Source of the DNA: a virus
Length of the DNA stretch: 62,946 nt
IMG/VR virus record: IMGVR_UViG_3300045988_087398
Strand: one strand, 5' to 3'
The first letter of the stretch is position 1. Every line of letters begins with the position of its first letter. Shown one piece after another: positions 2,678 to 58,441 of this stretch. A program made the translations under genes and the position numbers. The notes beneath the pieces were generated by a model. It was not told where the DNA came from. It ran no database searches and saw only the letters and a program-made list of their open reading frames with translations.

Positions 2678-2705
2678 GTCGCGAATAAAACATGCCTTTT
2701 TATGG
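2678..2705 (+). promoter_or_regulatory. TTCGCG-N14-TATTATGA element, copy A (gtCGCG-N14-TTTTATGG)
   Basis: gtcgcg aataaaacatgcct ttttatgg. Same 14-nt spacing and ACA position as the other copies. The leader is identical to that of copy 7. Confidence 0.6.
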
Positions 2706-2716
2706 AGGTGATATTT

Positions 2717-2898: not shown

Positions 2899-2937
2899 AA
2901 GACTCAGTGTAGAAATACATTGGGTCTTTTATTTTTG
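2899..2937 (+). terminator. Rho-independent terminator (28 nt identical to 42705..42732)
   Basis: aagactcagtg-tagaaata-cattgggtctt stem-loop followed by TTTTATTTTT. Confidence 0.7.
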
Positions 2938-2968
2938 TTGGATTGAAAAAGAAAGGAGACGCAACAAA

Positions 2969-5657: not shown

Positions 5658-5685
5658 CCCGCGGAAATATCATGCCCTTTTATGA
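5658..5685 (+). promoter_or_regulatory. TTCGCG-N14-TATTATGA element, copy B (ccCGCG-N14-TTTTATGA)
   Basis: cccgcg gaaatatcatgccc ttttatga. Preceded by the partial duplicate gtgcgaataaaacat (compare copy A). The following leader resembles 57854..57880. Confidence 0.5.
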
Positions 5686-5796
5686 GAGGAAAGTGTGATA
5701 TTCTGTATTTCACAACATTTCCTCTTACCTTTGACTTTGGAACGTACTCCGGTGTCCTTCGGGCCCGGGGTCATTTATATTTAAGGAGGGGTTAAA

Positions 5797-6087
5797 GTGA
5801 AAGAGAATAAGTTTCAGGCAGGATTAAAAAAGAAACTTAAAACGATGTTTCCCGGATGTATAGTAACCAAACTCGATTCGAGTGATATTCAAGGCATTCC
5901 AGATTTACTTGTCTTATATAAAGATAAGTGGGCTGCCTTAGAAGTCAAGAAAGAGGCGAAAGCTTCTCATAGACCGAATCAAGATTACTATGTTGAGAAA
6001 ATGAATGAGATGTCATTTTCCAGATTTATATTTCCAGAAAATGAGGAGGACGTATTAAATGAACTTCGTGAAACATTCAAATCTTGA
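5797..6087 (+). CDS. VRR-NUC domain nuclease
   Basis: GTG start after AAGGAGGGG. The GIPDLLVL...ALEVKKE segment is a PD-(D/E)xK core typical of VRR-NUC. Confidence 0.65.
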   Translation: MKENKFQAGLKKKLKTMFPGCIVTKLDSSDIQGIPDLLVLYKDKWAALEVKKEAKASHRPNQDYYVEKMNEMSFSRFIFPENEEDVLNELRETFKS

Positions 6088-6613
6088 GGGGCTTCATGCA
6101 CCATTCAGTGCTAGTCAGTCGGCATGGCTTAGATATGACACTGAAAAAGCACTAACCGTATATGATAATATGCGGGCAAAAGAAAGAGGGACAAAGCTTC
6201 ATGATTGGGCAAAGAGAACTATCGACTTAGGAATCAAACAGCCCAGATCAAATAAAACCTTGTATGCATATGTCAATGATGCTATTGGTTTTAAAATGAG
6301 TACCGAAGTGGTGTTATATTACTCACCATATTTCTTTGGTACAGCTGATGCTATATCATTTAGAAATAATAAATTAAGAATACATGATCTTAAGACTGGA
6401 AAATCTGGTCACATGGAGCAGCTTGAAGTATACGCTGCTCTTTTTTGTTTGGAATACAAAATCAAACCAGGAGATATACAGATGGAGTTACGCTTATATA
6501 AGGACAATGAAGTAATTGTTCATGAGCCAACTGCTGAAGATATTTTACCAATCATGGACAAGATCACGTCTCTTAACAAAGCATTAGAAAACTTTGACGA
6601 CAGGGAGGTGTAG
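6059..6613 (+). CDS. PD-(D/E)XK family nuclease (RecB/Cas4-like fold)
   Basis: GTADAISF...LRIHDLKTGK...QLEVYA reads as a D...D/ExK...Q..Y motif series. Confidence 0.55.
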   Translation: MNFVKHSNLEGLHAPFSASQSAWLRYDTEKALTVYDNMRAKERGTKLHDWAKRTIDLGIKQPRSNKTLYAYVNDAIGFKMSTEVVLYYSPYFFGTADAISFRNNKLRIHDLKTGKSGHMEQLEVYAALFCLEYKIKPGDIQMELRLYKDNEVIVHEPTAEDILPIMDKITSLNKALENFDDREV

Positions 6614-6616
6614 ATA

Positions 6617-9592
6617 TTGAATCCTATTGCAGAAGAAATTGAATCATATCAGGGATGTGGCTCGATGACAACGAACGAATTCCTTGAGCATTATGGAATG
6701 CCTAGAAGATCAGGTAGATATCCATGGGGTTCTGGTGAGGATCCATATCAGCATGAGAGAGACTTCCTTAGTCGAGTTGAAGAATTAAAAGCGACTGGTT
6801 GGACAGAAACTCCGGAGAATATTAAAGAGACATTCGGATTGACGACAACACAGTATCGTACTGAGAAAGCTCTGGCTAAAGATGAACGAAGAATGTATGA
6901 CGTAGCAAGGGCAAAGTCACTCAGAGATGATGGTCTTGGAGCAACAGAGATTGGACGTAAGATGGGTATCAATGAATCGACAGTCAGATCGTTACTTAAT
7001 CCACATTCTGAACAGCGTATGGAGCAGGCGAGAAACACTGCAAAATATTTGAAAGAACAAGTGGATAAGAAGGAAATGGTTGAGGTTGGTACAGGTGTAG
7101 AGCGAGAGCTGAATATTTCAAAGGAGAAATTAGATCAAGCTCTCTATCTGTTGCAGAGAGATGGGTATAACGTTTACAAAGGTGGAATACCACAGGCAAC
7201 CAACCCAGGGCAACAAACAAATCAGCGAGTATTATGCAAGCCTGGAATTGAGCATAAAGAAATATATGATTTCAATAGAGTACAATCCTTGAAAGATTAC
7301 ATTTCGAGAGATGGCGGTGATACTTTTGAAAAGAAGTTCCATTATCCAGAGAGCATGGATTCAAGGCGATTGATGATCCGCTATAAAGAGGATGGCGGAA
7401 TTGAAAAGGATGGAGTAGTAGAGCTTCGTCCTGGTGTTGCTGACTTATCGCTTGGCGAATCTCGTTATTCTCAGGTTCGTATTATGGTTGACGGTAAGAA
7501 ATACATAAAAGGTATGGCTGTTTATGGAGATCCAAAAGATTTTCCCGATGGTATTGATGCCATCTTCAATACAAACAAATCTAAGTCAGTAGCAAAGATG
7601 GATGTGTTGAAAGACATCAAGAATGATCCAGACAATCCTTTTGGTTCACTCATCAAAGATGCTGATCAAGGAGGTCAGTATTGGTATGATGATCCAAAGA
7701 CTGGTAAAAAGAAACTTGGATTGATCAATAAAAGATCCGATGAGGGTGATTGGACTGAATGGAAAGACACGTTACCATCTCAGTTCTTGGCAAAGCAGTC
7801 ATTGAGAATGGCGGGCAAACAGCTGGATTTAGCCAAGGCAGACAGAAGAGATGAGTTTGAAGAGATTAAATCGATCACGAACCCTGTGATTAAAAAACAT
7901 TTCTTAGAGAAATTTGCTGATAGTTGTGATTCAGCATCAGTTCATTTGAAAGCGGCAGCGTTACCGGGGCAGAAATACCATGTAATACTCCCTATCAATT
8001 CTTTAAAGGAGAACGAAGTGTATGCTCCTGGATATACGCCAGGAACTAAGTTAGCATTGATTCGTTATCCGCATGGTGGAACATTTGAAATTCCAATACT
8101 TACTGTTACTGATAAAAATCCAGAAGGTAGAAGAATAATCGGAACCGAATCTATTGACGCAGTCGGTATTAATCACACGGTTGCTGAGCGTTTATCAGGA
8201 GCTGATTTTGATGGTGATACTGTTATGTGTATTCCAACACACGACAAAGCAGGAAGGGTTAAGATCGCCTCAACGCCTCCATTAAAAGGTCTTGAGGGAT
8301 TCGATCCAAAAATGTCATACCCAGAACGTCCCGGTATGAAATATATGAAAGACCCAAAGACTGGTAAAGACAATACTCAGAATGAAATGGGGAGAATTTC
8401 AAACCTTATCAGTGATATGACCTTAGCAGGAGCACCACCAGAAGAAATGGCTAGAGCAGTAAGACATTCTATGGTAGTTATTGATGCTGGAAAACATAAG
8501 CTGGACTACAAGCAAAGTGAGATTGATAACAACATTAAAGCATTGAGAAAAGAGTATCAGGTTAAGACGGATAAGGATGGAAACATTACTGGCTATGGTG
8601 GCGCCGCTACTATCATTTCAAGAAGTAAGGGCGAATCTACAATAAACAAACGCCAAGGTACGCCCAAGATTAATCTTAAGGGTAAAGAATGGTATGACCC
8701 AAGCAGACCTGAAGGTGCACTTATCTATAAAGATGCAGATAACCTATACTACCCAGATCGTAAGCAAGAGAAAGGTATCGTGGAGTTACGTACCGTGGAT
8801 GGTAAAAAAGTAACCTACTCCTATGCCGATAAGGATGCGGTAGATAGGTATGCCCCAGTAGAGAGGAGAGACCCTGCTACCGGAAAAGTCACATTCACTA
8901 ATAAAGATGGAAGCATAGAGTATCGAACCAAGGTTCATACACAGAAGAGTACCAATATGGCTGATACTGATGATGCATACACTCTAGTATCAAAGGCTAG
9001 ACACCCTATGGAACTTCTATATGCCGATTATGCCAATGATATGAAAGCATTAGCGAATCAGGCACGTGTTGAACTAGCCAATACAAGTAAGGTGGCATAT
9101 AACCGAAATGCCAACACAATGTATAAAGCAGAGGTTAAGTCGTTGGATGAGAAACTTAATAATGCATTATTAAATGCTCCTAGAGAGCGTGCCGCACAAC
9201 GAATGGCTAATGCTGAAGTACAAAAGAAACAATTGGACAATCCTGATTGGAAGTCTGCTGATGTTAAGAAAGCGAGTCAGCAAGCATTAACAAAGTTTCG
9301 ACAAGAAGTTGGCTCTGTCTCGAGAAGAGCTCGAAACATACAGATTACAGACAATGAATGGAAAGCTATTCAAGCTGGAGCAATCAGTGAAAGTAAATTA
9401 AAGAAGATTCTTAATAATGCAGACATTGATGAATTGAGACAACGTGCCACACCAAGACAGACAAAAGCTATGACCGAATCTCAAATCAATCGTGCAAAAG
9501 CAATGTCTTCTTCGAACTTCACATTAAAACAGATCGCAGATGCTTTAGGCGTCTCAACATCAACAGTTTCAAAGTATTTGAAAGGAGCGTGA
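6617..9592 (+). CDS. Candidate YonO/RdRP-like two-barrel RNA polymerase with N- and C-terminal HTH-like segments
   Basis: TTG start after GGGAGGTG. LALIRYPHGG...AVGINHTVAERLSGADFDGDTVMCIP parallels beta-prime NRAPTLHR...[23 protein letters not shown]. HTH-like segments are GATEIGRKMGINESTVRSLL and LKQIADALGVSTSTVSKYL. Confidence 0.5.
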   Translation: MNPIAEEIESYQGCGSMTTNEFLEHYGMPRRSGRYPWGSGEDPYQHERDFLSRVEELKATGWTETPENIKETFGLTTTQYRTEKALAKDERRMYDVARAKSLRDDGLGATEIGRKMGINESTVRSLLNPHSEQRMEQARNTAKYLKEQVDKKEMVEVGTGVERELNISKEKLDQALYLLQRDGYNVYKGGIPQATNPGQQTNQRVLCKPGIEHKEIYDFNRVQSLKDYISRDGGDTFEKKFHYPESMDSRRLMIRYKEDGGIEKDGVVELRPGVADLSLGESRYSQVRIMVDGKKYIKGMAVYGDPKDFPDGIDAIFNTNKSKSVAKMDVLKDIKNDPDNPFGSLIKDADQGGQYWYDDPKTGKKKLGLINKRSDEGDWTEWKDTLPSQFLAKQSLRMAGKQLDLAKADRRDEFEEIKSITNPVIKKHFLEKFADSCDSASVHLKAAALPGQKYHVILPINSLKENEVYAPGYTPGTKLALIRYPHGGTFEIPILTVTDKNPEGRRIIGTESIDAVGINHTVAERLSGADFDGDTVMCIPTHDKAGRVKIASTPPLKGLEGFDPKMSYPERPGMKYMKDPKTGKDNTQNEMGRISNLISDMTLAGAPPEEMARAVRHSMVVIDAGKHKLDYKQSEIDNNIKALRKEYQVKTDKDGNITGYGGAATIISRSKGESTINKRQGTPKINLKGKEWYDPSRPEGALIYKDADNLYYPDRKQEKGIVELRTVDGKKVTYSYADKDAVDRYAPVERRDPATGKVTFTNKDGSIEYRTKVHTQKSTNMADTDDAYTLVSKARHPMELLYADYANDMKALANQARVELANTSKVAYNRNANTMYKAEVKSLDEKLNNALLNAPRERAAQRMANAEVQKKQLDNPDWKSADVKKASQQALTKFRQEVGSVSRRARNIQITDNEWKAIQAGAISESKLKKILNNADIDELRQRATPRQTKAMTESQINRAKAMSSSNFTLKQIADALGVSTSTVSKYLKGA

Positions 9593-9849: not shown

Positions 9850-10127
9850 ATATGTGGTGGAAAAAGCATAGAGGGGGGTCTGAAAAAATGCACCCCCTCC
9901 CTGCATCGCCGCCCTCTTTGAAAATTCCCCGGGGGGATTTTTTATATTTGAGTTTCATGATACTTATAAGGGCTTATGATATGGTCTAGTGCACATCTCA
10001 ATGGACCTGCCACCTATTGAGAGTTTGTTAGTTTCTCCTTTCTGTTTTGTGCATCCCTCCGCCATATTATAAGTCTTTATAAGTGTTATGAAACAGTATG
10101 GAAACTATAAGAAAGGAGATCAGAAAC
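9850..10127. other. Candidate cos/packaging-recognition region
   Basis: 278-nt non-coding gap. GC-rich hairpin GAGGGGG(9871)/CCCCCTC(9893), CCCCGGGGGG palindrome, and three TTATAAG repeats. It lies just upstream of the small terminase-like, HNH and TerL genes. Confidence 0.45.
9921..9945 (+). terminator. Rho-independent terminator
   Basis: aaaattcccc-gg-ggggatttt hairpin followed by a T-run. Confidence 0.6.
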
Positions 10128-10890: not shown

Positions 10891-10895
10891 AGTGA

Positions 10896-10924
10896 GAAGC
10901 CTGACGATAGGCTTCTTTTTTTTA
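10896..10924 (+). terminator. Rho-independent terminator
   Basis: gaagcc-tgacgata-ggcttc hairpin followed by T9. Confidence 0.7.
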
Positions 10925-10943
10925 TTTGAGAGGAGGTATGCAA

Positions 10944-11321
10944 ATGAGCGAAGTCACAAATGCGAACGACAGCATTCTTACATCAATCAAGAAAATTCTT
11001 GGAATACCAGAAGAGCATGAACACTTTGATGCAGATATCATTATGCATATCAACACAGTTTTTATGATTCTCAATCAGCTTGGTGTCGGACCCACTTCTG
11101 GTTTTAAGATTCTGGATAAAACTACGATGTGGGACGACTATTTGAAAAATGATAGTCAGTTAGAAGCTGTGAAATCCTATATGGGTTACAAGGTTCGATT
11201 GATGTTTGATCCCCCATCAAGCTCAGCCATCACAGAGTCAATTAATCGCGTCATTAGCGAGCTTGAATGGAGAATACTTGTGATGGTCGAAAGTAAAAAT
11301 TCTCGAGAGGAGGAATCATGA
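10944..11321 (+). CDS. gp6-like head-tail connector / DNA-packaging (QLRG-like) protein
   Basis: SILTSIKKILGIPEEHEHFDADIIMHINTVFMIL resembles the N-terminus of gp6-like connector proteins. Confidence 0.4.
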   Translation: MSEVTNANDSILTSIKKILGIPEEHEHFDADIIMHINTVFMILNQLGVGPTSGFKILDKTTMWDDYLKNDSQLEAVKSYMGYKVRLMFDPPSSSAITESINRVISELEWRILVMVESKNSREEES

Positions 11322-11983: not shown

Positions 11984-13747
11984 ATGGCATTATCGAACAC
12001 CGCCACCCCACGATACTACGGCGAGTTTCGAGATGCCGTACTTCGAGGTGAAATTCCGGTAAATGAAAAAATCGAGATGGAAATGAATCGAATAGATGCC
12101 CTAATACAGAATCCAGGTGTCTACTACGATGATAAGGCAATAGATGGATTTATTGCTTATTGTGAAAAAGAATTGGTTCTAACTAATGGTGATGATCTAC
12201 ATTTATTGGATTCATTCAAACTGTGGGCTGAGCAGATTTTTGGATGGTATTACTTTGTTGAGAGGAGTGTGTACGTCCCGTCAAAAGATGGGCACGGAGG
12301 GCATTATGCGAGAAAACGAATTAAGAAACGGCTCATAAATAAGCAGTATCTGATCGTTGCGAGAGGCGCAGCAAAATCTATGTATGCTTCTTGTATTCAA
12401 AACTATTTCTTGAATGTCGATACATCCACAACACATCAGGTCACAACAGCTCCAACAATGCCACAAGCAGAAGAGGTTATGTCGCCAATCAAGACTGCCA
12501 TAACCAGGGCAAGAGGACCGTTGTATCAGTTTCTTACTTATGGATCATTGCAGAATACAACCGGATCGAGAGCTGACAGAGTGAAACTTGCCAGCACAAA
12601 GAAGGGAATTCAGAATTTCTTGACGGGGTCACTGCTGGAAGTAAGACCAATGTCGATTGACAAGCTTCAGGGATTACGAGTGAAGATAGCTACAGTAGAT
12701 GAATGGTTATCTGGAGATGTCCGGGAGGATGTAATTGGTGCTTTGGAGCAGGGCGCCGCTAAGGAACAGGGCGGAGGTATGAACGATGACTATCTTATCG
12801 TAGCGATTTCCTCTGAAGGAACTGTCCGTAATGGTTCGGGAGATACAATCAAAATGGAATTGATGAGTATATTAAAAGGTGAGTACAATGCTCCACACAC
12901 CTCGATATGGTGGTATGCCCTTGATTCTGTTGACGAAGTATCAGAACCGGATTTATGGATAAAAGCAAATCCAAACCTTGGAAAAACTGTAAGTTATGAA
13001 ACGTATCAGTTGGATGTCGAGAGAGCTGAAAAGAATCCGGCAGTTCGGAATGATATTTTGGCAAAGAGATTCGGTATTCCCATGGAGGGTTATACATATT
13101 ACTTCACATATGAAGAAACTCTTCCTCACAGAAAGAAAGAGTATTGGCAAATGCCATGTGCAATGGGAGCCGATCTTTCTCAAGGTGATGATTTCTGTTC
13201 TTTCGTATTTCTATTTCCATTATCAAATGGAGAATTCGGTGTAAAAACAAGAAACTACATAACGGAGCTTACTTTGAATAAGCTACCTTCAGCCATGAGA
13301 TTCAAATACGAAGAGTTCATGAATGAAGGAAGTCTTATTGTCATGGATGGAAACATTCTCGATATGATGCAGGTATTCGACGATTTGGACGAATACATTC
13401 TGTCTATTGGCTATGACGTTCGGTGTTTTGGATATGATCCATACAATGCTAAAGAATTTGTGGAAAGATGGTCAAGAGAAAATGGACCATTTGGTATTGA
13501 GAAAGTAATACAGGGAACAAAAACCGAGTCAGTCCCATTAGGTGAATTAAAGAAGTTATCAGAAGAGAGAATGCTGCTGTTTGATGAGAAGCTTATGACC
13601 TTTGCGATGGGAAACTGTATCGTTATGGAAGATACAAATGGAAATCGTAAACTTCTAAAGAAAAGACATGATGCAAAGATTGATGCTGTAGCGGCTATGA
13701 TGGATGCCTTCGTTGCATTCAAGTTAAATCGAGAAGCATTTGAGTAA
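11984..13747 (+). CDS. terL: Terminase large subunit
   Basis: VARGAAKS Walker A-like, IATVDEW Walker B, and C-terminal nuclease motifs GADLSQGDD, GYDPYN and KIDAVAAMMDA. Confidence 0.9.
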   Translation: MALSNTATPRYYGEFRDAVLRGEIPVNEKIEMEMNRIDALIQNPGVYYDDKAIDGFIAYCEKELVLTNGDDLHLLDSFKLWAEQIFGWYYFVERSVYVPSKDGHGGHYARKRIKKRLINKQYLIVARGAAKSMYASCIQNYFLNVDTSTTHQVTTAPTMPQAEEVMSPIKTAITRARGPLYQFLTYGSLQNTTGSRADRVKLASTKKGIQNFLTGSLLEVRPMSIDKLQGLRVKIATVDEWLSGDVREDVIGALEQGAAKEQGGGMNDDYLIVAISSEGTVRNGSGDTIKMELMSILKGEYNAPHTSIWWYALDSVDEVSEPDLWIKANPNLGKTVSYETYQLDVERAEKNPAVRNDILAKRFGIPMEGYTYYFTYEETLPHRKKEYWQMPCAMGADLSQGDDFCSFVFLFPLSNGEFGVKTRNYITELTLNKLPSAMRFKYEEFMNEGSLIVMDGNILDMMQVFDDLDEYILSIGYDVRCFGYDPYNAKEFVERWSRENGPFGIEKVIQGTKTESVPLGELKKLSEERMLLFDEKLMTFAMGNCIVMEDTNGNRKLLKKRHDAKIDAVAAMMDAFVAFKLNREAFE

Positions 13748-36734: not shown

Positions 36735-37985
36735 TTATTGTATTTTTTCTAAGTCTTCTCTAAGCCACTCTACATCTCTTTCGGTGTAAGTGGATTCGGT
36801 TATATCTTGGATATTATGTCCAACCATCTCCTTTAAAGCATATTCGTCTACGTTTGCTTTCTTACATCGAGTGATAAATGTTTTTCTTGGATCGTGAGGT
36901 CTATGCTCAGGATTCAATTTCAATTGCTGTATCACCTTCGTAAAGCGGTTCTTATATTTGTCGTATGTAACAGCATAAGAACCGGCATGTGTTTGTCCTT
37001 TATCATTGAATAGATAAGGGCTTCCTAATTCTATTGCTTTGTCATAATTCATTTTCACAAGCCCTTTTATTTTTGCGTGGATGGGGACGATACGTTGTTT
37101 GCCAGCATTCGTCTTCATTCCGGCTTTCATATACCATTCATCCATATTCACCTCATCAAGACGTAAGGTAGCGAGTTCCTGTGGTCGCCACCCCATATAC
37201 ATCTGAATAATCACCCAATCAGCATATTTTACAACTCCTATATTTTTCCACAATTTATCAATTTCATCTTCGCTGAAAATAATATGTGGTTTCTTAGAGT
37301 TTTCGATATTCTCAACTATGTCGTCAGATAAGTTGAACGTCCGGGCATAATTCTTATCTACAATCTCATATTCTTCAGCGTAATCAAGCAATAGATTGAA
37401 CGTAGATTTAATTCTCGATTTAATCCCTGGGGATGGGTAAATCTTTTTGTCTTTTTCCTTACCTTTTGTTCCTATTCGATATCCTTCCTCGATGCATCCT
37501 TTTATGTGCCGGGCTCTAACGTCTTTTGCTCTCATGTCATATATGGACGAGCAATATGACCACGCTGCTGTAACAGATCGAGTAGCGGACGGCGATATGC
37601 CAGAAAAATATTCTTTGCTCCATTTCATATACAACTCTTTCACTGTTAAATCATTATTCAAGTCATAAGGATTTCGTCTGTACTCCATCAATGCTTCGTA
37701 TGCCTCGTTGTATGTTGGGAAATAGCAAGTTGGCTTTAACTGTTTCAAAATAGGTTTGCCATCTGGTGTCTTTCCAACTGTAACTCTGGCTCTAAAACGA
37801 TTTCTCAATGGTTTGTTTTTAATCTCAGTAATACTTCCAAAGCCATTAGGCAATCGTCGTCGCTTAGTTGTCCTTGGACGAACCTGCGATTGTTTTGAGA
37901 GCGGATAACCACAATGCGGACAAGTTAGTGCTTTATCGCTGACCTGTAATTCACATTCTGGACATTTTGTGAGCATAAGCATCAC
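36735..37985 (-). CDS. int: Tyrosine integrase with N-terminal zinc ribbon and AP2-like arm-binding domain
   Basis: CPECELQVS...CPHCGYPL; LPNGFGSITE...RFRARVTVG...FPTYNEAYEAL; catalytic WRPQEL...HDPRKTF...VGHNI...STYTERD. Confidence 0.9.
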   Translation of the reverse strand: MMLMLTKCPECELQVSDKALTCPHCGYPLSKQSQVRPRTTKRRRLPNGFGSITEIKNKPLRNRFRARVTVGKTPDGKPILKQLKPTCYFPTYNEAYEALMEYRRNPYDLNNDLTVKELYMKWSKEYFSGISPSATRSVTAAWSYCSSIYDMRAKDVRARHIKGCIEEGYRIGTKGKEKDKKIYPSPGIKSRIKSTFNLLLDYAEEYEIVDKNYARTFNLSDDIVENIENSKKPHIIFSEDEIDKLWKNIGVVKYADWVIIQMYMGWRPQELATLRLDEVNMDEWYMKAGMKTNAGKQRIVPIHAKIKGLVKMNYDKAIELGSPYLFNDKGQTHAGSYAVTYDKYKNRFTKVIQQLKLNPEHRPHDPRKTFITRCKKANVDEYALKEMVGHNIQDITESTYTERDVEWLREDLEKIQ

Positions 37986-38120
37986 TCCTTTCTATTTTTG
38001 TGCGAACTATATTACTACGTTTTTTTTTATTTTGTCAACCGTTTGGGCAAACTACATCATGGGAATTCGATCAATTATCGTCTTACTTATTATGTAACAA
38101 ATTTTTTGGGAAGGAGCGTG

Positions 38121-38447
38121 ATGAAAATGCCAAAAGGAAAATGTGAAGGCGGTTGTAAGAATTTGAAGCACTATGATTGGAGGTTGAGAAAAGTATACGA
38201 CAAGGGTCGAGTCGCAGTACCAATTAAGGTTGAAAGACTCAAATGTAAAGATTGTGGACACATGACATTGAGATATCCGGATGATGTTTTATCGTACAAA
38301 CAATATGATAAGGACATTTACGAAGGGGTCGTCGAAGGATTTATTACGCCGGATACGTACGGATTTGAAGAATACCCATCCGAGAGAACAATGCAACGTT
38401 GGCTTAAAGAGCATAAAGATGACGATATGGATAATTCTTCCAAATAA
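38121..38447 (+). CDS. Zinc-ribbon protein (DUF6431-like pattern)
   Basis: AAGGAG RBS. CEGGCKNL...RLKCKDCGH... Confidence 0.4.
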   Translation: MKMPKGKCEGGCKNLKHYDWRLRKVYDKGRVAVPIKVERLKCKDCGHMTLRYPDDVLSYKQYDKDIYEGVVEGFITPDTYGFEEYPSERTMQRWLKEHKDDDMDNSSK

Positions 38448-38680: not shown

Positions 38681-38718
38681 AAGCCTGTTGATAGAAATGT
38701 CAGCAGGCTTTTTTATTT
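38681..38718 (+). terminator. Rho-independent terminator
   Basis: aagcctg...caggctt stem followed by TTTTTATTTT. Confidence 0.6.
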
Positions 38719-38830
38719 TATTCGTATATTTCTTTGAATTACCCCTCCCTATATAACAACCAAATCCACCTAAGTTGTCGTGACGAATCATAGCGATTGA
38801 TGTATATTCGTGTCACAAGGAGGTGAAAAG

Positions 38831-39082
38831 ATGCAAGATATAGTATTTGGTCCCGGTTCAGTTCCGGTAGCAGTAGCTGCTAGAGTATACGGTAAGGATG
38901 CAAACTGGATTAGAGCGGGTATTGTGACTGGATATCTGGACATAGGGACCGCTACTAGGAGGGGTAAAGTAATAACGTCCATAGAACAAATGAATAGTAA
39001 GTACGGACGGATCAATTATTATATATCTCCTAAGAAATTGTATGCTGAAACTGGTTATATTTGGAAAGGAGTAACGCGATGA
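38831..39082 (+). CDS. Putative excisionase-like/DNA-binding protein
   Basis: AAGGAGGTG RBS. The call rests on small size and its position in the integration module; sequence support is weak. Confidence 0.3.
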   Translation: MQDIVFGPGSVPVAVAARVYGKDANWIRAGIVTGYLDIGTATRRGKVITSIEQMNSKYGRINYYISPKKLYAETGYIWKGVTR

Positions 39083-39492
39083 AATCTGAATTATCAAAGA
39101 GAAATCCATATTGGATTGAAAAACACCGGTATTACGAATTACGTCATTTTTGTTTGCAATATCCTATTTGGAAAAGTTCATACAATTCTTTGTATGGTTT
39201 ATCAAAACATATACATATAAGCGATGTTACTAATTCGTCAAAAACAAAAAATATTCCAGATCCAACGGCAACGATTGCAGGAAAAAGGATGTTTTATTCA
39301 GACCGGATGAAGATGATTACGGAAACGGCAAAGAACACAGATGAGTCATTGGCAAAATATCTTGTGTGTGGTGTGACGGAAGGATTATCATACGATACGC
39401 TTCGAGCTCGCCACAATATTCCATGTTGTAGAGATACATATTATGACATGTATCGAAAGTTTTTTTGGCTGCTTAGCAATGTACGAGATTAA
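39079..39492 (+). CDS. Putative sigma-70 region-4-like / RinA-ArpU-type phage transcription activator
   Basis: ATGA coupling to the upstream gene. The C-terminal YLVCGVTEGLSYDTLRARHNIPCCRDTYYDMYRKFFWLL looks like a region-4 HTH. It lies directly upstream of the first element of the cassette array. Confidence 0.4.
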   Translation: MKSELSKRNPYWIEKHRYYELRHFCLQYPIWKSSYNSLYGLSKHIHISDVTNSSKTKNIPDPTATIAGKRMFYSDRMKMITETAKNTDESLAKYLVCGVTEGLSYDTLRARHNIPCCRDTYYDMYRKFFWLLSNVRD

Positions 39493-39514
39493 AATTCTAA
39501 TCTAGATTAGAATT
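39493..39514. promoter_or_regulatory. 22-bp perfect palindrome AATTCTAATCTAGATTAGAATT (operator candidate) abutting element copy 1
   Basis: Read directly from the sequence. A shorter copy, TAATCTAGATTA, lies at 40868..40879. Confidence 0.6.
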
Positions 39515-39540
39515 CGCGTAGAAAACAGATTGTTTTATGG
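39513..39540 (+). promoter_or_regulatory. TTCGCG-N14-TATTATGA element, copy 1
   Basis: ttcgcg tagaaaacagattg ttttatgg. Its first 18 nt are shared with copy 7. Confidence 0.6.
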
Positions 39541-39575
39541 AACTATAATTTATATTTTTAAGGAGGAACAATATT

Positions 39576-39911
39576 ATGGAGATGAAGAGTTTAGGAACTT
39601 GTTATTTGTACGAGGTTACAAAAACAGGAATGACGAAATGCTTCGGAGAGGTTTTTCATCAGGATGCGATTACCAAAGAAGATGGACGCACCATACCTGG
39701 GACGACCGCATTTCGACCTCAGCAGGGAGGATCGGTTATTGTGGCGTCCGAGGAAGGATGCATTCTTGATGGTACGATCTGGTATTATGACGATGAACCG
39801 GAAGAAGCGCTTAAGAAGCTGTATAAAGCAGAACGTGCAAAATTAGCAAGACTCAACAATGATGTCTATCGACAGGAAATGATTGTGCTTAATCTTAAAG
39901 CAAAATTATAG
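39576..39911 (+). CDS. Hypothetical protein (cassette ORF, 111 aa)
   Basis: AAGGAGGAAC RBS. Flanked by element copy 1 and the terminator at 39919. Confidence 0.6.
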   Translation: MEMKSLGTCYLYEVTKTGMTKCFGEVFHQDAITKEDGRTIPGTTAFRPQQGGSVIVASEEGCILDGTIWYYDDEPEEALKKLYKAERAKLARLNNDVYRQEMIVLNLKAKL

Positions 39912-39918
39912 AAGGATC

Positions 39919-39948
39919 GAGCCCCTAACAAGGGCTCTTTCTTTTTTT
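39919..39948 (+). terminator. Terminator of the shared GAGyCC-TAACA-GGrCTC family
   Basis: gagccc-ctaacaa-gggctc hairpin followed by TTTCTTTTTTT. The T-tract runs into element copy 2. Confidence 0.7.
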
Positions 39949-39975
39949 ACGCGAAAATTACATTTCCTATTATGA
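39948..39975 (+). promoter_or_regulatory. TTCGCG-N14-TATTATGA element, copy 2
   Basis: tacgcg aaaattacatttcc tattatga. 32 nt are identical to copy 5. Confidence 0.6.
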
Positions 39976-40016
39976 AAACAAAGACAACATATCATAAAAA
40001 GGAAAGGATGATTATT

Positions 40017-40119: not shown

Positions 40120-40147
40120 TTCGCATAAATATCATCCTATTCTATGG
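40120..40147 (+). promoter_or_regulatory. TTCGCG-N14-TATTATGA element, copy 3 (degenerate: TTCGCA...TTCTATGG)
   Basis: ttcgca taaatatcatccta ttctatgg. The spacing is the same. Confidence 0.45.
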
Positions 40148-40159
40148 GAGGTGAGAACA

Positions 40160-40327
40160 GTGAAAAACATACTGACGATTATCATGAGTATAGTATTGGT
40201 TCTTATGCTGGTGATTGATATATTTTTCTATCAAAGACCAGAAGGAAGAATGTTTATGCTTATACTCGCAACAATTGGAGGTGTATGCAGCATCATTATG
40301 TTCGAACAAGACGAAGCAGAGTCCTAA
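40160..40327 (+). CDS. Small membrane protein (55 aa, 2 TM) ending ...EAES
   Basis: GTG start after GGGAGG. The stop TAA lies in the loop of the terminator hairpin. Confidence 0.55.
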   Translation: MKNILTIIMSIVLVLMLVIDIFFYQRPEGRMFMLILATIGGVCSIIMFEQDEAES

Positions 40328-40344
40328 CATGGACTCTTCTTTTT
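40318..40344 (+). terminator. Shared-family terminator with the stop codon in the loop
   Basis: agagtcc-TAAcat-ggactct hairpin followed by TCTTTTT. Confidence 0.75.
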
Positions 40345-40370
40345 CGCGAAAATTACAAGGTGTATTATGA
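40343..40370 (+). promoter_or_regulatory. TTCGCG-N14-TATTATGA element, copy 4
   Basis: ttcgcg aaaattacaaggtg tattatga. Confidence 0.6.
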
Positions 40371-40446
40371 GAGAATAGACACTCGAAAGGGCAGTGAAGT
40401 TTGAGGATCCAAGCATCATTGGAAACTAATCGGGAAGGAGATAATA

Positions 40447-40599
40447 GTGAAAACTATGCACGAGGCTAGATCGAAAGATGAACTATATCGAAAGATATAC
40501 CATGAGCCTGAGGGAAATATCGGCGTCCTTCGAGTGGAATTGATGTATTCTTTTCTTTTTCGCGAAAATTACATTTCCTATTATGAAAACAATTCATAA
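40447..40599 (+). CDS. Possible 50-aa ORF (cassette without its own terminator; reads through element copy 5)
   Basis: GTG after GGGAAGGAG. The frame was checked codon by codon. This may be a decayed cassette. Confidence 0.25.
   Translation: MKTMHEARSKDELYRKIYHEPEGNIGVLRVELMYSFLFRENYISYYENNS
40559..40586 (+). promoter_or_regulatory. TTCGCG-N14-TATTATGA element, copy 5
   Basis: ttcgcg aaaattacatttcc tattatga. Confidence 0.6.
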
Positions 40600-40862: not shown

Positions 40863-40867
40863 ATTTT

Positions 40868-40879
40868 TAATCTAGATTA
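40868..40879. promoter_or_regulatory. Palindrome TAATCTAGATTA (second copy of the 39493 operator core)
   Basis: Read directly. Followed by the AT-rich gaattttatattttacaac. Confidence 0.5.
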
Positions 40880-40987
40880 GAATTTTATATTTTACAACAC
40901 AGACAAACCCATAATAAATGATATTTTGATATTGGAAAAATTCCCGGGTGGGGTTTTCATAAAAACAAAATGGAAGGAGGAAAACAA

Positions 40988-41194
40988 ATGGTTGCATTAG
41001 CGATTACTTTGGTGATTACCAACATTCTTTGGCTTTTATATTTTCAGTGGTGGCGGAAGAAGAAAACATTGGGATCTATCATTATTACGGACGAAGACTC
41101 TTTGTACGTAGAATTGGAAGATCACGAGTCTATGGATAAGATTCATAAGAGTAAAGATGTTATTTTTTCAGTGCATATGGAATCGCGTAAATAA
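40988..41194 (+). CDS. Small membrane protein (68 aa, N-terminal TM)
   Basis: GGAAGGAGG RBS. MVALAITLVITNILWLLYFQWW... Confidence 0.6.
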   Translation: MVALAITLVITNILWLLYFQWWRKKKTLGSIIITDEDSLYVELEDHESMDKIHKSKDVIFSVHMESRK

Positions 41195-41234
41195 CGTGGG
41201 CTATTATGAATAAAATTTAAGGAGGTATAAAGCA

Positions 41235-41604: not shown

Positions 41605-41635
41605 GACGCTGAGGAAACTTGGCGTCTTAGTTTTT
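41605..41635 (+). terminator. Rho-independent terminator
   Basis: gacgc-tgaggaaacttg-gcgtc hairpin followed by TTAGTTTTT, running into element copy 6. Confidence 0.6.
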
Positions 41636-41661
41636 CGCGAAATAAACATCGACTATTATGA
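41634..41661 (+). promoter_or_regulatory. TTCGCG-N14-TATTATGA element, copy 6
   Basis: ttcgcg aaataaacatcgac tattatga. Confidence 0.6.
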
Positions 41662-41734
41662 AAGGATGATATATAATTATTTATATTATTGTCCTTATCT
41701 TAACGGAAAGGGCTTGCTTTAAGGAGGCAGGTAA

Positions 41735-42318: not shown

Positions 42319-42346
42319 TTCGCGTAGAAAACACACAGTTTTATGG
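42319..42346 (+). promoter_or_regulatory. TTCGCG-N14-TATTATGA element, copy 7
   Basis: ttcgcg tagaaaacacacag ttttatgg. The leader ttttatggaggtgatatttatg is identical to that of copy A. Confidence 0.6.
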
Positions 42347-42357
42347 AGGTGATATTT

Positions 42358-42736: not shown

Positions 42737-42764
42737 TTCGCGTAAAAAACATATCCCTTTATGA
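42737..42764 (+). promoter_or_regulatory. TTCGCG-N14-TATTATGA element, copy 8
   Basis: ttcgcg taaaaaacatatcc ctttatga. Confidence 0.55.
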
Positions 42765-42799
42765 AAATAAACTACATTACATAAACGGAGGTATGTGTT

Positions 42800-42989: not shown

Positions 42990-43025
42990 GGAGTAGATTT
43001 GACAGAGTCTATTCCTTTTCTTTTT
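42990..43025 (+). terminator. Rho-independent terminator
   Basis: ggagtaga-tttgacagag-tctattcc hairpin followed by TTTTCTTTTT. Confidence 0.6.
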
Positions 43026-43051
43026 CGCGAAAATTACATACTGTATTATGA
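43024..43051 (+). promoter_or_regulatory. TTCGCG-N14-TATTATGA element, copy 9
   Basis: ttcgcg aaaattacatactg tattatga. Confidence 0.6.
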
Positions 43052-43080
43052 GGAAATCAAAGAAAGGAAGGTATATTTAT

Positions 43081-43257: not shown

Positions 43258-43282
43258 GAGAGCTACGGCTCTCTTATTTTTT
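43258..43282 (+). terminator. Terminator GAGAGC-tacg-GCTCTC
   Basis: Perfect 6-bp stem with a tetraloop, directly after the stop TAG, followed by TTATTTTTT. Confidence 0.7.
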
Positions 43283-43308
43283 CGCGAAAAATACTTTCAC
43301 TATTATGA
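43281..43308 (+). promoter_or_regulatory. TTCGCG-N14-TATTATGA element, copy 10
   Basis: ttcgcg aaaaatactttcac tattatga. Confidence 0.6.
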
Positions 43309-43347
43309 CAATAATAACAGTTTTCATAAATGAAAGGAGAAAACATT

Positions 43348-43574: not shown

Positions 43575-43602
43575 TTCGCGTCGTTTACATTTCCTATTAT
43601 GA
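43575..43602 (+). promoter_or_regulatory. TTCGCG-N14-TATTATGA element, copy 11
   Basis: ttcgcg tcgtttacatttcc tattatga. Confidence 0.6.
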
Positions 43603-43628
43603 AAACATATAGGAAAGGAGACAAAATA

Positions 43629-44524: not shown

Positions 44525-44552
44525 TTCGCGAAAAAACCATTTGCTATTATGA
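44525..44552 (+). promoter_or_regulatory. TTCGCG-N14-TATTATGA element, copy 12
   Basis: ttcgcg aaaaaaccatttgc tattatga. It starts one nt after the stop of 43745..44524. Confidence 0.6.
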
Positions 44553-44577
44553 AAAAATACAAAAGGAGGGTCTTAAT

Positions 44578-44831: not shown

Positions 44832-44859
44832 TTCGCACGAAAAACATCGGCTATTATGG
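44832..44859 (+). promoter_or_regulatory. TTCGCG-N14-TATTATGA element, copy 13 (TTCGCA...TATTATGG)
   Basis: ttcgca cgaaaaacatcggc tattatgg. Preceded by AATGATATTTTGATA (44811..44825), which also occurs at 40919..40933. Confidence 0.55.
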
Positions 44860-44877
44860 AAAGGAGGTAAGCCATCT

Positions 44878-45051
44878 ATGAAAGAAAAGTTTAATTCAAC
44901 GACAGTTTTGAGCGCCGTTGTGACTGCGATGGGAGTGATTGGAACATTACTTTCATTTAAGGTTCAGAACGATGATCGGGAACTGTTGAAGGAAGAATTA
45001 AAGGAAGAGCTTAGAGAAGAGCTTAGCAACGAAGATAAAGAGGAGTCCTAA
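44878..45051 (+). CDS. Small membrane protein (57 aa, 1 TM, EEL-repeat tail) ending ...KEES
   Basis: AAAGGAGG RBS. The stop TAA lies in the terminator loop. Below the ORF-track cutoff. Confidence 0.55.
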   Translation: MKEKFNSTTVLSAVVTAMGVIGTLLSFKVQNDDRELLKEELKEELREELSNEDKEES

Positions 45052-45070
45052 CACGGGCTCTTCTTTTATA
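45040..45070 (+). terminator. Shared-family terminator with the stop codon in the loop
   Basis: gagtcc-TAAcac-gggctc hairpin followed by TTCTTTTAT. Confidence 0.65.
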
Positions 45071-45090
45071 TTTGATAGGAGGAATCAAAC

Positions 45091-45885: not shown

Positions 45886-45913
45886 TTCGCGAAAAATACA
45901 AGCACTATTATGA
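45886..45913 (+). promoter_or_regulatory. TTCGCG-N14-TATTATGA element, copy 14
   Basis: ttcgcg aaaaatacaagcac tattatga. It starts directly after the stop of 45091..45885. Confidence 0.6.
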
Positions 45914-45948
45914 CAGAGTAAAAAATTATATTTAAGGAGGACAAAACT

Positions 45949-56608: not shown

Positions 56609-57845
56609 GCCGTTTTTATATGACTACCAGATGGATGCTGTGAATCACATGTTCAATGGTTGTATTCTCAATGGTGGTGTTGGATCGGGAAAAAGTAGAA
56701 CCGGATTATATTACTATTTCAAGGAACAAGGTGGTAGTATAAATCCAGACTACAAACCGATGAAAAAGCCAAAGGATTTATATATTATCACAACTGCCAT
56801 GAAACGGGATACTTTGGAATGGGAAGGTGAGCTGGCAAATTACCTACTATCCACAGACCCAAAGAAAAACCTCTTAAATGGTAGCGTAAAAATTACCATA
56901 GATTCATGGAATAATATAAAGAAGTATGTAGATGTAAAAAATGCATTCTTCATATTTGATGAACAGAGAGTGGTTGGATCCGGAGCTTGGGTTAAGGCAT
57001 TTCTGAAAATAACAAAGTCAAATAATTGGGTTTTGTTGTCGGCAACTGCCGGAGACACCTGGTCTGATTATATTCCGGTATTCATAGCAAATGGTTTTTA
57101 TAAGAACAGATCTGAGTTCATCCAACAACATGTGATATATTCTCGATTTACAAAATACCCGCAGATTGACAGATATATCAATACTGGTCGATTAATTCGT
57201 TTAAGAAAGAAAATACTGATTGATATGGACTTCAAGCGTCAGACAATCGCTCACCATAATGATATTTATGTAACATATGATGTCACTAAGTATAAATCAG
57301 TTGTGAAAAATAGATGGGATCCATACAAAAATGAACCTATCCAACAGGCATCGGGTCTCTGTTATATTTTAAGAAGAGTCGTTAACGAAGACGAATCCAG
57401 AATAGTAGCTCTATTGGAGATTCTTGAGAAAACTCCTAGAGCTATTATTTTTTACAATTTTGATTATGAGCGAGAGATGCTATTACATGTGTTTAGCAAC
57501 CACGATGGTAATAGTAAGGACTTTGAAGTGGCCGAATGGTCTGGTCATGCTCACCAACCTATACCAAAAACAAAGCGATGGGTATATCTGGTTCAGTATA
57601 CGGCTGGATGTGAAGGTTGGAATAGTATCAAGACAGACACGATTATATTCTATTCACAGAATTACAGTTATAAGGTTGTGACACAGGCTGCTGGACGAAT
57701 CGATCGTCTGAATACGCCATTCAAAGATTTATATTATTATCATCTGAAAAGTAGAAGCGGGATTGATCTCGCCATAAGTAAAGCATTGAAGGAGAAGAAA
57801 AAATTCAATGAAACAAAATGGTGCGGTAATTCATTCGCGAAATAA
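56598..57845 (+). CDS. SF2 (DEAD/DEAH-like) helicase
   Basis: GGVGSGKSRT (motif I), FIFDEQR (II), LLSATAGD (III), QAAGRIDR (VI). Confidence 0.75.
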   Translation: MPTKPFLYDYQMDAVNHMFNGCILNGGVGSGKSRTGLYYYFKEQGGSINPDYKPMKKPKDLYIITTAMKRDTLEWEGELANYLLSTDPKKNLLNGSVKITIDSWNNIKKYVDVKNAFFIFDEQRVVGSGAWVKAFLKITKSNNWVLLSATAGDTWSDYIPVFIANGFYKNRSEFIQQHVIYSRFTKYPQIDRYINTGRLIRLRKKILIDMDFKRQTIAHHNDIYVTYDVTKYKSVVKNRWDPYKNEPIQQASGLCYILRRVVNEDESRIVALLEILEKTPRAIIFYNFDYEREMLLHVFSNHDGNSKDFEVAEWSGHAHQPIPKTKRWVYLVQYTAGCEGWNSIKTDTIIFYSQNYSYKVVTQAAGRIDRLNTPFKDLYYYHLKSRSGIDLAISKALKEKKKFNETKWCGNSFAK

Positions 57846-57861
57846 TCATGTCCTTATATGA
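57834..57861 (+). promoter_or_regulatory. TTCGCG-N14-TATTATGA element, copy 15 (overlaps the helicase stop)
   Basis: ttcgcg aaataatcatgtcc ttatatga. Confidence 0.55.
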
Positions 57862-57879
57862 GAGGAAAGGAGTGATTAT

Positions 57880-58134
57880 ATGCGAGATTATGAATATTTA
57901 ATTTCCATAGCATTGCGAGATAAACTGAAAGAATCAATTAAAGGAAGAGTATTCTGTAAGGTTGAATATGACTATTTATACATATCTATTCAGACAAGAG
58001 AATTAGATAGGTTTGAATATAAGATATACGATTTTGCGGACAAACTCATAACCGGAAGATTGATTGTAGATGAGATTGCAGCAACTGTGGTAGCTAATTA
58101 TAAGAAATATATATTGGCATATTTCACATATTAG
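57880..58134 (+). CDS. Hypothetical protein (84 aa)
   Basis: GAAAGGAGTGA RBS. Lies downstream of element copy 15. Confidence 0.55.
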   Translation: MRDYEYLISIALRDKLKESIKGRVFCKVEYDYLYISIQTRELDRFEYKIYDFADKLITGRLIVDEIAATVVANYKKYILAYFTY

Positions 58135-58177: not shown

Positions 58178-58195
58178 GGAGGTATAAATATTTAT

Positions 58196-58441
58196 ATGAC
58201 AATTGAAAGATGGCAACAGGAATTCGCAGATCGTTTACGTAACAAGATGAATGAACGTGGATGGGGCATTCGCAAAACAGCAAAGGAATCCGGTTTAAGC
58301 ATCATGACAATATCTAAGTATGTAAATGCTTTGGTAGTTCCGAGATGTACGGAATTGATGAAACTCGCTAATGCTTTCAGTGTAAATCCTTCATATTTCA
58401 TAGATTTTGGCGAGTCAGTTGAGTTTTTGATAGGGAGGTGA
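58196..58441 (+). CDS. XRE-family helix-turn-helix regulator
   Basis: GWGIRKTAKESGLSIMTISKYVNALVVPRCTELMKLANAFSVNPSYF. Confidence 0.7.
   Translation: MTIERWQQEFADRLRNKMNERGWGIRKTAKESGLSIMTISKYVNALVVPRCTELMKLANAFSVNPSYFIDFGESVEFLIGR

Follow-up and report, generated by a model that had tools for sequence, protein, structure and literature searches.

A conserved operator-like box between a gp03-family gene and a strand-specific promoter-like element at the integrase end of a temperate gut phage

The 62,946-bp stretch of viral DNA filed as IMG/VR record IMGVR_UViG_3300045988_087398 (the window, by which we mean its whole length) is that of an Oengusvirus-like temperate siphovirus of gut Clostridia. 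At the start of its early region, beside the integrase gene, three features follow closely on one another: a gene for a 137-amino-acid protein of the family of Faecalibacterium phage FP_oengus gp03, a perfect 22-bp palindrome, and the first copy of a promoter-like element that recurs ahead of many genes. The palindrome is, by its symmetry and its occurrence in relatives, a conserved operator-like site. We propose that gp03 is a regulator that binds this box, which in relatives lies at the early promoter P_E, and that the element is read by another protein, a 991-amino-acid RNA polymerase (RNAP)-like product. Taken as one explanation, this stands in our judgement evenly between right and wrong.

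Two questions are raised by the arrangement. The first is which protein reads the element. An earlier reading of the sequence (the original prediction) named two candidates, the 137-amino-acid protein and the RNAP-like product; co-occurrence across phages speaks against the former and favours the latter. The second is what the palindrome controls. It had been taken for a repressor or anti-activator site gating the whole array of small genes downstream. The control site stands, as a conserved and operator-like one. The gating of the array does not, for each cassette has its own element and terminator, and the palindrome is probably a local control site that serves the junction and the first cassette.

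The repeated element and its reader

The element has the form TTCGCR-N6-ACA-N5-TATWATG and is a compact promoter-like signal of about 27 bp. A scan with a position weight matrix (PWM; cut-off at least 12 bits) finds 18 copies in the window, where 17 had been counted before. All are on the plus strand; the best minus-strand score is 0.3 bits. Fifteen of the 18 lie within 39.5-45.9 kb, and the others start at 57834, 2678 and 5658. The genes behind the copies are small cassettes, replication genes and, at 5658, the polymerase operon; the late region has no copy. The idea of a dedicated transcription system for an accessory-gene island is thus too narrow in its second half, since replication genes and the polymerase operon have the element at their head as well; its first half fits the domains of the 991-amino-acid protein.

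The same strand preference is seen in relatives. We fetched 164 related loci, collected through gp03, which with the window make 165 sequences. In 1.31 Mb of loci the pattern [TG][TA]CGC[GA]-N6-ACA-N5-T[AT]TTATG matches 778 times on the plus strand and not once on the minus strand. Copies that are strand-specific, upstream of genes and placed after terminators are what promoters of a phage RNAP should look like. Terminators are enriched in the array (16 found against 4.4 expected), and every cassette carries its own element and its own terminator. A sigma-70 promoter scan of 38.4-46.6 kb stays at chance level, with 33 sites found and 30.5 expected, so the cassettes appear to lack canonical promoters. 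The window at 39513-39911 and the related locus L001 at 10780-11109 are nearly identical in promoter, leader and ribosome site, and their coding sequences are unrelated; judged by this comparison, the coding parts of the first cassette are exchanged behind fixed expression signals.

The terminators have a character of their own. Hairpins at 39919-39947, 40319-40348 and 45043-45072 in the window, and at 6678 and 7331 in locus L166, share a loop and stem, GAG.CC-CTAACA-.GG.CTC, followed by a T-run. Terminators with the CTAACA loop number 203 on the plus strand of the related loci and 0 on the minus strand, and the same type occurs in Arthrobacter phage Salk. That the loop is kept across phyla suggests that these terminators are adapted to the phage polymerase and are not intrinsic terminators of the general kind.

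Which protein reads the element? Homologues of the RNAP-like protein occur in 250 phage records (Arthrobacter, Gordonia, Streptomyces, Lactococcus and others), those of gp03 in four. Phage Salk has eight plus-strand copies of TCGCR-N6-ACA-N5-TATAATG, after its CTAACA-loop terminators. About six copies of TCGCA-N6-ACA-N5-TATAGTGAGACCCCTAC occur in Streptomyces phage Scap1, and the 3' core TTTTACATACCCTATAATG is found nine times in Lactococcus phage P092, in some cases directly ahead of tRNA genes. All three phages carry the RNAP-like protein, and hmmsearch at E up to 10 finds no gp03 homologue in any of them (positive control, FP_oengus gp03, 3.7e-48). Element and polymerase therefore occur together in FP_oengus, P092 (3' core only), Salk and Scap1, and since the last three do so without gp03, the element goes with the polymerase and not with gp03.

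The 991-amino-acid protein itself has a catalytic loop of the RNA-dependent RNA polymerase (RdRP)/YonO type, GADFDGD at residues 528-534, and a helix-turn-helix (HTH) near each end, around residues 105-127 and 968-989. Its family has already been proposed to be an RNA polymerase (HHpred 95.7%; bioRxiv 10.1101/842583). Pfam RdRP models give no match to it at E up to 0.01, and tblastn with the protein gives no Bacillus or SPbeta match. We infer that the 991-amino-acid protein is the reader of the element; its two HTH domains may serve for this.

The surroundings of the element also point to where transcription would begin. Of 408 elements, 163 have a ribosome site that sets in 0-3 nt behind the invariant G, and in FP_oengus (L083) that G is directly followed by a tRNA-like gene (2908-3006), called 'tRNA-???', whose anticodon loop is odd. 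These two adjacencies imply a start at or next to the invariant G. Such a start would put TATWAT at -6 to -1, ACA near -13 and CGCG near -23, a layout that suits a compact promoter of a single polymerase and not the -35/-10 form of the sigma-70 family. Neither TTCGCG-14-TATTAT nor TTTACA-5-TATAAT is spaced as sigma-A would need. In P092 (L165), element copies at 23591 and 23979 stand directly ahead of tRNA or tRNA-like genes. Use of the element's ATG as a leaderless start codon was considered and rejected, as copy 1 meets a stop after three codons.

Lytic and temperate phages differ in this part of the element. The lytic relatives (L165, L166) have a perfect TATAAT; the temperate gut phages (L083 and the type-B loci) mostly have TTTATG or TATTAT. 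The change in temperate phages may be a loss of compatibility with host sigma-A, which would keep the promoters silent in lysogens. We found no description of these elements in the literature on YonO promoters, FP_oengus, 1706-type phages, ReqiPepy6 or Arthrobacter phages; subscription journals were largely outside our reach, and an earlier description is possible.

The palindrome, its relatives and the gp03 family

The palindrome is the longest perfect one in the window, and arms of at least 11 nt turn up in 3 of 200 first-order Markov simulations. Its last TT is also the first TT of TTCGCG at 39513, in element copy 1, as the original prediction had it. The shorter second copy that had been noted at 40868..40879 is present but longer than thought, its identity to the palindrome extending over 17 nt to 40884. 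Perfect 11-nt arms and a second copy of 17 nt give the site the dyad symmetry expected of an operator. The next best site in the window matches 13 of 18 core positions, which leaves two sites only. The site is identical in L003 and L004, 99%-identical relatives that with the window and L001 make up the window clade, and L001, L002 and many more loci have the second copy in the same place. The TAGAAT within the palindrome was rejected as a promoter -10, for in the window it is preceded neither by a -35 nor by a CCAC box. A different perfect palindrome of 14 bp, TATAAATATTTATA at 58183-58196, overlaps the start codon of an XRE-type HTH gene of 81 codons (58196-58441), which would be expressed from the element copy at 57834.

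Where does such a site come from? In 121 of the 165 sequences a conserved non-coding block, CCACYGAGGTTGTTTTWAC-N10-TYCTWAYCTAGAATAG, lies ahead of the gp03 operon. It has TAGAAT at a fixed offset, 17 nt after TTWACW, and on these motifs P_E is a good sigma-A-type promoter driving gp03. A box, TTCTAACCTAGAATAGAA, covers its spacer and -10 in most of these sequences, over 100 prophages in all, a conserved position at a promoter such as an operator would hold. The box is a relative of the window palindrome, which by sequence comparison is a perfected and displaced copy of the conserved box TTCTAAYCTAGRWTAGAA: the P_E copies have 7 of 9 arm matches, against a perfect 22-bp dyad in the window. Boxes with at least 15 of 18 core matches are found in 83 of 163 related loci and in 1 of 163 shuffled loci. 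Relatives also have a weaker second copy (a T-run, then ATCCTAGATTAGAA) that follows a terminator and precedes a conserved leader with GAAAAATTSCCSGGGTGG by about 55 nt; this is the position of the window's copy at 40865. In FP_oengus a box abuts an element copy independently (CTATTCTAGAATAGAAT, 5 nt, then GGCGCG).

The window clade departs from this pattern at P_E. It keeps the CCAC box and the -10 offset, and the TTCTAACCTAGAATAG box of other clades is replaced. In its place, an inverted repeat GTGACGAAT...ATTCGTGTCAC, whose arms are kept in L001 with a different spacer between them, is a candidate clade-specific operator. An impression that P_E operators vary widely from clade to clade was dropped when a wider sample showed the box to be mostly conserved and replaced in few clades, the window's included. 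The gene upstream of P_E has changed as well. In 107 loci a DUF6431 homologue separates P_E from the integrase or prophage end; that of the window clade scores 351 and 204 bits inside the clade and at most 89 bits to other clades, a divergence far above that of gp03. DUF6431 and the P_E region together look like a swapped immunity-type module.

The box is found in several gene architectures. It occurs without DUF6431 in L068 (in the order integrase, box and leader, gp02, gp03), without gp02 in 55 loci (gp02 is present in 108 of the 163 gp03 loci), and without the window's XRE protein in FP_oengus. The XRE protein, 58196..58441, was rejected as the binder because FP_oengus has no homologue of it. 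Because gp03 is the only gene adjoining the box in every architecture seen, its product is the best candidate binder; this is the weakest step of our explanation. In the gp03-less phages Salk and Scap1 the box was not seen as a regulatory site. A match in P092 was rejected as a regulatory site, lying inside coding sequence (codons YSRLE).

The gp03 family had no annotation before. It is very large, with 1686 close homologues and, at 50% identity, 1946 cluster representatives; prophages of Lachnospiraceae, Oscillospiraceae, Christensenellaceae and others carry it. The family profile matches residues 2-137 of the 137 in the window's protein, which is 42% identical to FP_oengus gp03 and ends in ...GLSYDTLRARHNIPCCRDTYYDMYRKFFWLLSNVRD. 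The gene is the first or second after the integrase/DUF6431 end, with element copy 1 at once behind it. It is coupled to the gene before it as first proposed, the ATG at 39079-39081 overlapping the TGA at 39080-39082 of the frame 38831..39082, and AAGGAG stands 7 nt upstream of the ATG.

The original prediction had also called this gene sigma-region-4/RinA-like and named sigma-70 region 4, RinA, ArpU and DUF1492 as families to compare it with, and here the searches do not support membership of any of them. They were run with the protein alone (E up to 1) and with 34 and 120 family members scanned individually (E up to 10). There is no profile match to sigma-70 region 4 (PF04545, PF08281) for gp03 or for the 34 or 120 members, and no NCBIfam sigma model matches; Pfam and NCBIfam give no match of gp03 to RinA (PF05263, TIGR01636), and no profile hidden Markov model (HMM) match to ArpU (TIGR01637) or DUF1492 (PF07374) is found. 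The gp03 alignment set against a RinA alignment built from phage 80alpha yields an hhalign probability of 0.3%. Pfam, NCBIfam and PDB sequence searches return only noise (LANA1, DndE, seryl-tRNA synthetase and similar).

Structure prediction is more informative. The AlphaFold2 model is all-helical. Its predicted local distance difference test score (pLDDT) is 86 over the full length, and the C-terminal 77 residues reach 95.6 when modelled by themselves. The HTH-like tail predicted earlier is seen in the model as helices 105-112 and 118-136. Foldseek of the whole model finds nothing significant in the PDB; its weak neighbours in BFVD are often DUF1492, ECF sigma and sigma-70 region 4 phage proteins. 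For the C-terminal 77 residues there are two PDB fold matches in all, Staphylococcus aureus sigma B (template modelling score, TM, 0.56; E 3.4) and Mycobacterium tuberculosis sigma H (TM 0.52; E 5.6), both in entries that are polymerase complexes. On the model, a sigma-domain-4-like HTH is a fair description of the C-terminal fold. The most conserved part of the protein is an aromatic N-terminal segment, FCLQYPIW. We infer that gp03 is a DNA-binding regulator of the lysogeny-proximal control region rather than a specificity factor for the repeated element.

In many relatives (L023 at 1434 and L027 at 6323, for example) a box-like AAAGCTAGATTAGAAATTCC stands within the gp03 coding sequence, where it codes for KARLEIP at the HTH turn. 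There the window's gene has RARHNIP and no such stretch, and the stretch in relatives may just follow from the conserved residues.

Weighing the explanations

How might these parts work together? In relatives, a protein bound at the box would block host RNA polymerase at P_E, and if that protein is gp03 the result would be autoregulation. In the window, P_E would have been swapped for another version and the box now lies between the gp03 stop codon and element copy 1. There is no intergenic terminator from 38720 to 39919 (the one weak scan match, at 39744, is inside the frame 39576..39911), so P_E transcripts cross the palindrome. A protein bound there would block this read-through and occlude the TTCGCG edge of the first promoter only; it could not gate the other 17 copies, because each lies in its own terminator-bounded unit. 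Transcription of these would depend on the 991-amino-acid protein reading the element and starting at the invariant G.

A wider picture is one we hold tentatively and rate a little on the doubtful side. The element and the CTAACA-loop terminators would be the cognate set of a two-barrel RNAP fused to HTH domains, with a start at G, in phages from Actinobacteria to Lactococcus and gut Clostridia; in the temperate Clostridia branch gp03 and the TTCTAAYCTAGRWTAGAA box would form a switch, driven by the host polymerase, for firing this self-amplifying circuit.

Several observations weigh against the explanation that we prefer. The link between box and gp03 is an association, and as the temperate loci were collected through gp03 their co-occurrence was not free to vary. 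The window clade changed its DUF6431 protein and its P_E operator region together, which also fits DUF6431 as the binder of the P_E site. Many variants of the box are asymmetric (TATCCTAGATTAGAA and TTATTCTAGGTTAAAT, for example), so binding by a dimer is not required by the data. The likeness of the gp03 C-terminal domain to sigma factors is not statistically significant (E 3-6), and its recognition helix is unusually aromatic for a reader of DNA (YY..YR.FFW.L). As to the element, a start at the invariant G is a prediction from sequence. The lytic relatives' element holds a perfect TATAAT, and some use of it by host sigma-A is possible there. Finally, the polymerase operon itself stands behind the element copy at 5658, which makes the first supply of polymerase a bootstrapping problem.

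The best of the alternatives, unlikely yet to be taken seriously, gives the palindrome to another protein, the DUF6431 zinc-ribbon protein or some other repressor, and leaves gp03 a different task such as binding or modulating the phage or host polymerase. Besides its joint change with P_E, DUF6431 in the 107 loci occupies the classic position of a repressor, and the conserved aromatic segment of gp03 looks like a protein-protein surface. L068, however, has box and leader in front of gp02 and gp03 and no DUF6431, and the window keeps two near-perfect boxes despite its different type of DUF6431 protein. Apart from these, the vicinity of the box yielded no conserved candidate for DNA binding.

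We regard as improbable the view closest to the original prediction, in which the 137-amino-acid protein is a sigma- or RinA-like factor that directs host RNA polymerase to the element and the palindrome is a repressor or anti-activator gate. It has attractions: gp03 is the first product of a sigma-A-type promoter, element copy 1 is behind its stop codon in every clade, its C-terminal domain resembles sigma domain 4, and a factor that gives the host polymerase a kick-start would solve the bootstrapping of a polymerase operon that lies behind the element. The replacement of TATAAT by TTTATG or TATTAT in temperate members could be read the same way. Against it, three phages have no gp03 and yet carry the complete element (Salk, Scap1) or its 3' core (P092), and polymerase-bearing phage records far outnumber those with gp03. 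With a start at G, moreover, both TATWAT at -6 to -1 and the 14-nt gap to TTCGCG misfit a sigma-70-family holoenzyme, and no HMM or profile links gp03 to sigma region 4, RinA, ArpU or DUF1492.

Less probable again is that the palindrome is a non-functional remnant or a recombination joint, left by the exchange of DUF6431 and P_E or marking a hotspot of cassette shuffling. The P_E module is swapped in the window clade, cassette coding parts are exchanged behind conserved promoters, and in L001, the closest relative, a minus-strand zinc-ribbon gene is inserted at the exact junction, between gp03 and a box that is degenerate (ATTCTTATCTAGGTTAAAG). A remnant should decay, yet this dyad is perfect over 22 bp where the P_E copies are not, it is unchanged in L003 and L004, and FP_oengus has brought box and element together independently.

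That the palindrome works in the P_E transcript as an RNA hairpin, be it for termination, attenuation or processing, is very improbable even though such transcripts do cross it, for the fold of 39470..39560 is no better than that of shuffles (z = 0.30) and its minimum-energy structure omits the full dyad, no T-run follows, Rfam gives no match (whole window at gathering thresholds; 38.4-41.3 kb at E up to 1) and the box of relatives lies inside a promoter, upstream of the start site; the unremarkable fold and the want of an Rfam match argue that the palindrome acts on DNA.

Surrounding genes and known systems

The gene order of the window is that of FP_oengus: integrase on the minus strand, gp02, gp03, the small-gene array, three DUF6353 genes, DNA polymerase, exonuclease and RNAP. 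L001 and L002 share it. In the window the array is followed by the three DUF6353 genes, a primase-polymerase, a helicase, the exonuclease and the 991-amino-acid protein, and 10-35 kb holds structural genes, with the terminase at 11984..13747. Megablast of 36.5-42.5 kb against phages gives no match. Coordinates are collected in Table 1.

Table 1. Features of the window discussed in the text (ORF, open reading frame)
Feature	Position	Strand	Evidence or remark
Tyrosine integrase	36735..37985	-	PF00589 E 3.9e-13, phrog_1 E 4e-38; sole minus-strand gene of region; position of FP_oengus gp01
DUF6431 protein (zinc-ribbon type), upstream of early promoter	37998..38447	+	PF20020 E 7.3e-14
Intrinsic terminator closing DUF6431 unit	38681..38720	+	13-bp stem and T-run
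P_E of window clade: CCACCTAAGTTGT box, then GTGACG-17-TATATT (38780..38808)	38766..38816	+	sigma-70 scan 9/12; inverted repeat GTGACGAAT...ATTCGTGTCAC on flanks
gp02-like gene (83 codons; phrog_6058), translationally coupled to next gene	38831..39082	+	phrog_6058 E 8.1e-26
137-codon gene, FP_oengus gp03 family (phrog_11237); product predicted all-helical with C-terminal sigma-domain-4-like HTH	39079..39492	+	phrog_11237 E 3e-50
Perfect 22-bp palindrome AATTCTAATCTAGATTAGAATT, operator-like box	39493..39514	.	directly after TAA stop (39490-39492) of gp03 gene
Element copy 1 (TTCGCGTAGAAAACAGATTGTTTTATGGAAC)	39513..39543	+	PWM 26.1 bits
First cassette ORF (111 codons)	39576..39911	+	AAGGAGG ribosome site
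First terminator after P_E (GAGCCCCTAACAAGGGCTC and T-run)	39919..39947	+	terminator scan
Element copy 2	39948..39978	+	PWM 39.2 bits
Element copy 3 (weak)	40120..40150	+	PWM 17.1 bits; ribosome site starts right after invariant G
Element copy 4	40343..40373	+	PWM 35.1 bits
Element copy 5	40559..40589	+	PWM 40.7 bits
Second box copy	40865..40884	.	17/18 core positions at 40865..40882; 17-nt identity TAATCTAGATTAGAATT at 40868..40884; right after terminator T-run
GAAAAATTCCCGGGTGGGGTTTTC motif in conserved leader upstream of 40988 gene	40937..40960	+	kept in many relatives and Arthrobacter phage Salk
Small membrane-anchored gene behind second box and leader	40988..41194	+	ORF
Element copy 6 (weak)	41182..41212	+	PWM 19.1 bits
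Element copy 7	41634..41664	+	PWM 34.7 bits
Element copy 8	42319..42349	+	PWM 23.1 bits; GGAGG directly after invariant G
Element copy 9	42737..42767	+	PWM 34.7 bits
Element copy 10	43024..43054	+	PWM 31.9 bits
Element copy 11	43281..43311	+	PWM 22.0 bits
Element copy 12	43575..43605	+	PWM 31.1 bits
Element copy 13	44525..44555	+	PWM 29.0 bits
Element copy 14	44832..44862	+	PWM 34.3 bits
Element copy 15	45886..45916	+	PWM 31.6 bits
Element copy 16, ahead of 57880..58134 and XRE-type gene 58196..58441	57834..57864	+	PWM 19.7 bits
Element copy 17	2678..2708	+	PWM 27.8 bits
Element copy 18, heads exonuclease and RNAP operon	5658..5688	+	PWM 26.1 bits; then ORFs 5797..6087, 6059..6613, 6617..9592
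991-residue RNAP-like protein, candidate element reader	6617..9592	+	phrog_4291 ('RNA-dependent RNA polymerase') E = 0
Second copy of leader motif, GAAAATTCCCCGGGG, between RNAP gene and first late gene	9921..9944	+	similar CCTCCGGGGGATTC at left end of Scap1

A second signal accompanies the box at 40865. The leader of genes of the 40988 type is conserved over about 100 nt and holds the motif GAAAAATTSCCSGGGKGG; a related sequence lies at about 6420 in L166, and the left end of Scap1 (L168), at about 55-75, has a similar CCTCCGGGGGATTC. Rfam has no match for the leader motif GAAAAATTSCCSGGG, which may be a second (late?) class of promoter or a regulatory site.

How does the system compare with what is known? 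The RinA, ArpU and DUF1492 activators of Firmicutes siphoviruses resemble gp03 in size (about 140 residues), in being all helical and in their C-terminal HTH; DUF1492 and sigma-like phage proteins have a weak likeness of fold to it in BFVD (TM 0.4-0.57), and a short local motif stands at the same N-terminal position (C.QYPxWKK against CDYPNYxKQ). The sequence searches above separate them, and so does position: RinA is encoded immediately upstream of the small terminase and late operon (rinA then terS in 80alpha), whereas the gp03 gene, at 39 kb, opens the early region next to the integrase gene. RinA-type activators serve a late promoter; the likely target of gp03 is a dyad box at early promoters.

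With sigma-70 domain 4 the likeness is one of fold. The four-helix C-terminal domain of the gp03 model can be laid over domain 4 of sigma B (TM 0.56) and of sigma H (TM 0.52) with a root-mean-square deviation of 3.0-3.7, and its first HTH helix reads LSY(D/E)xL. It differs in having no Sigma70_r4 or r4_2 profile match and no recognisable region 2, the E-values of the fold matches are not significant, and the repeated element offers no -35/-10 geometry that a sigma factor could use.

The box recalls lambdoid operators more closely. A dyad site of about 18-22 bp covers the spacer and -10 of an early promoter next to the integrase gene, there are two copies per genome, an HTH gene adjoins it, and the module is swapped between clades. 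In contrast to lambdoid phages, there is no divergent cI/cro pair, and every gene but the integrase points in one direction; the box varies little among many phages and is not immunity-specific; and in the window it abuts a promoter of phage-polymerase type instead of lying in P_E. Taken narrowly, an HTH regulator and an operator-like palindrome are things of an ordinary kind.

Less ordinary is that a promoter-like element present in 18 copies, a type of terminator and an RNAP-like gene travel together across bacterial phyla, and that temperate gut phages add to them, at the prophage end, a small module driven by a host promoter (P_E, box and gp03). The results also hint at the way in which abundant gut prophages may silence a transcription system of their own. 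Like the promoters of T7, T3 and SP6, the element is compact, highly conserved, strand-specific and repeated before many genes, with an AT-rich stretch that would end at the initiating G. The Scap1 version, CTCTATAGTGAGACC, resembles the T7 promoter CACTATAGGGAGACC; at 23126-26864 in that phage (L168) the 3' half of the element, CTCTATAGTGAGACCCCTAC, is close to the T7 initiation region, and the polymerase class is unrelated. Unlike the T7-like enzymes, the window's putative polymerase would be a two-barrel protein of RdRP/YonO type fused to HTH domains.

The nearest counterpart is YonO of SPbeta, a phage-encoded polymerase that likewise has a DxDGD loop. The two differ in that YonO serves late genes and the element promoters would serve early and middle genes. 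The promoter or recognition sequence of YonO was left undefined (PMC5467207), and the element is a concrete, testable candidate for what a YonO-type polymerase recognises. If the assignment is right, it would provide, as far as our literature searches reached, the first promoter consensus for the class of two-barrel polymerases fused to HTH domains.

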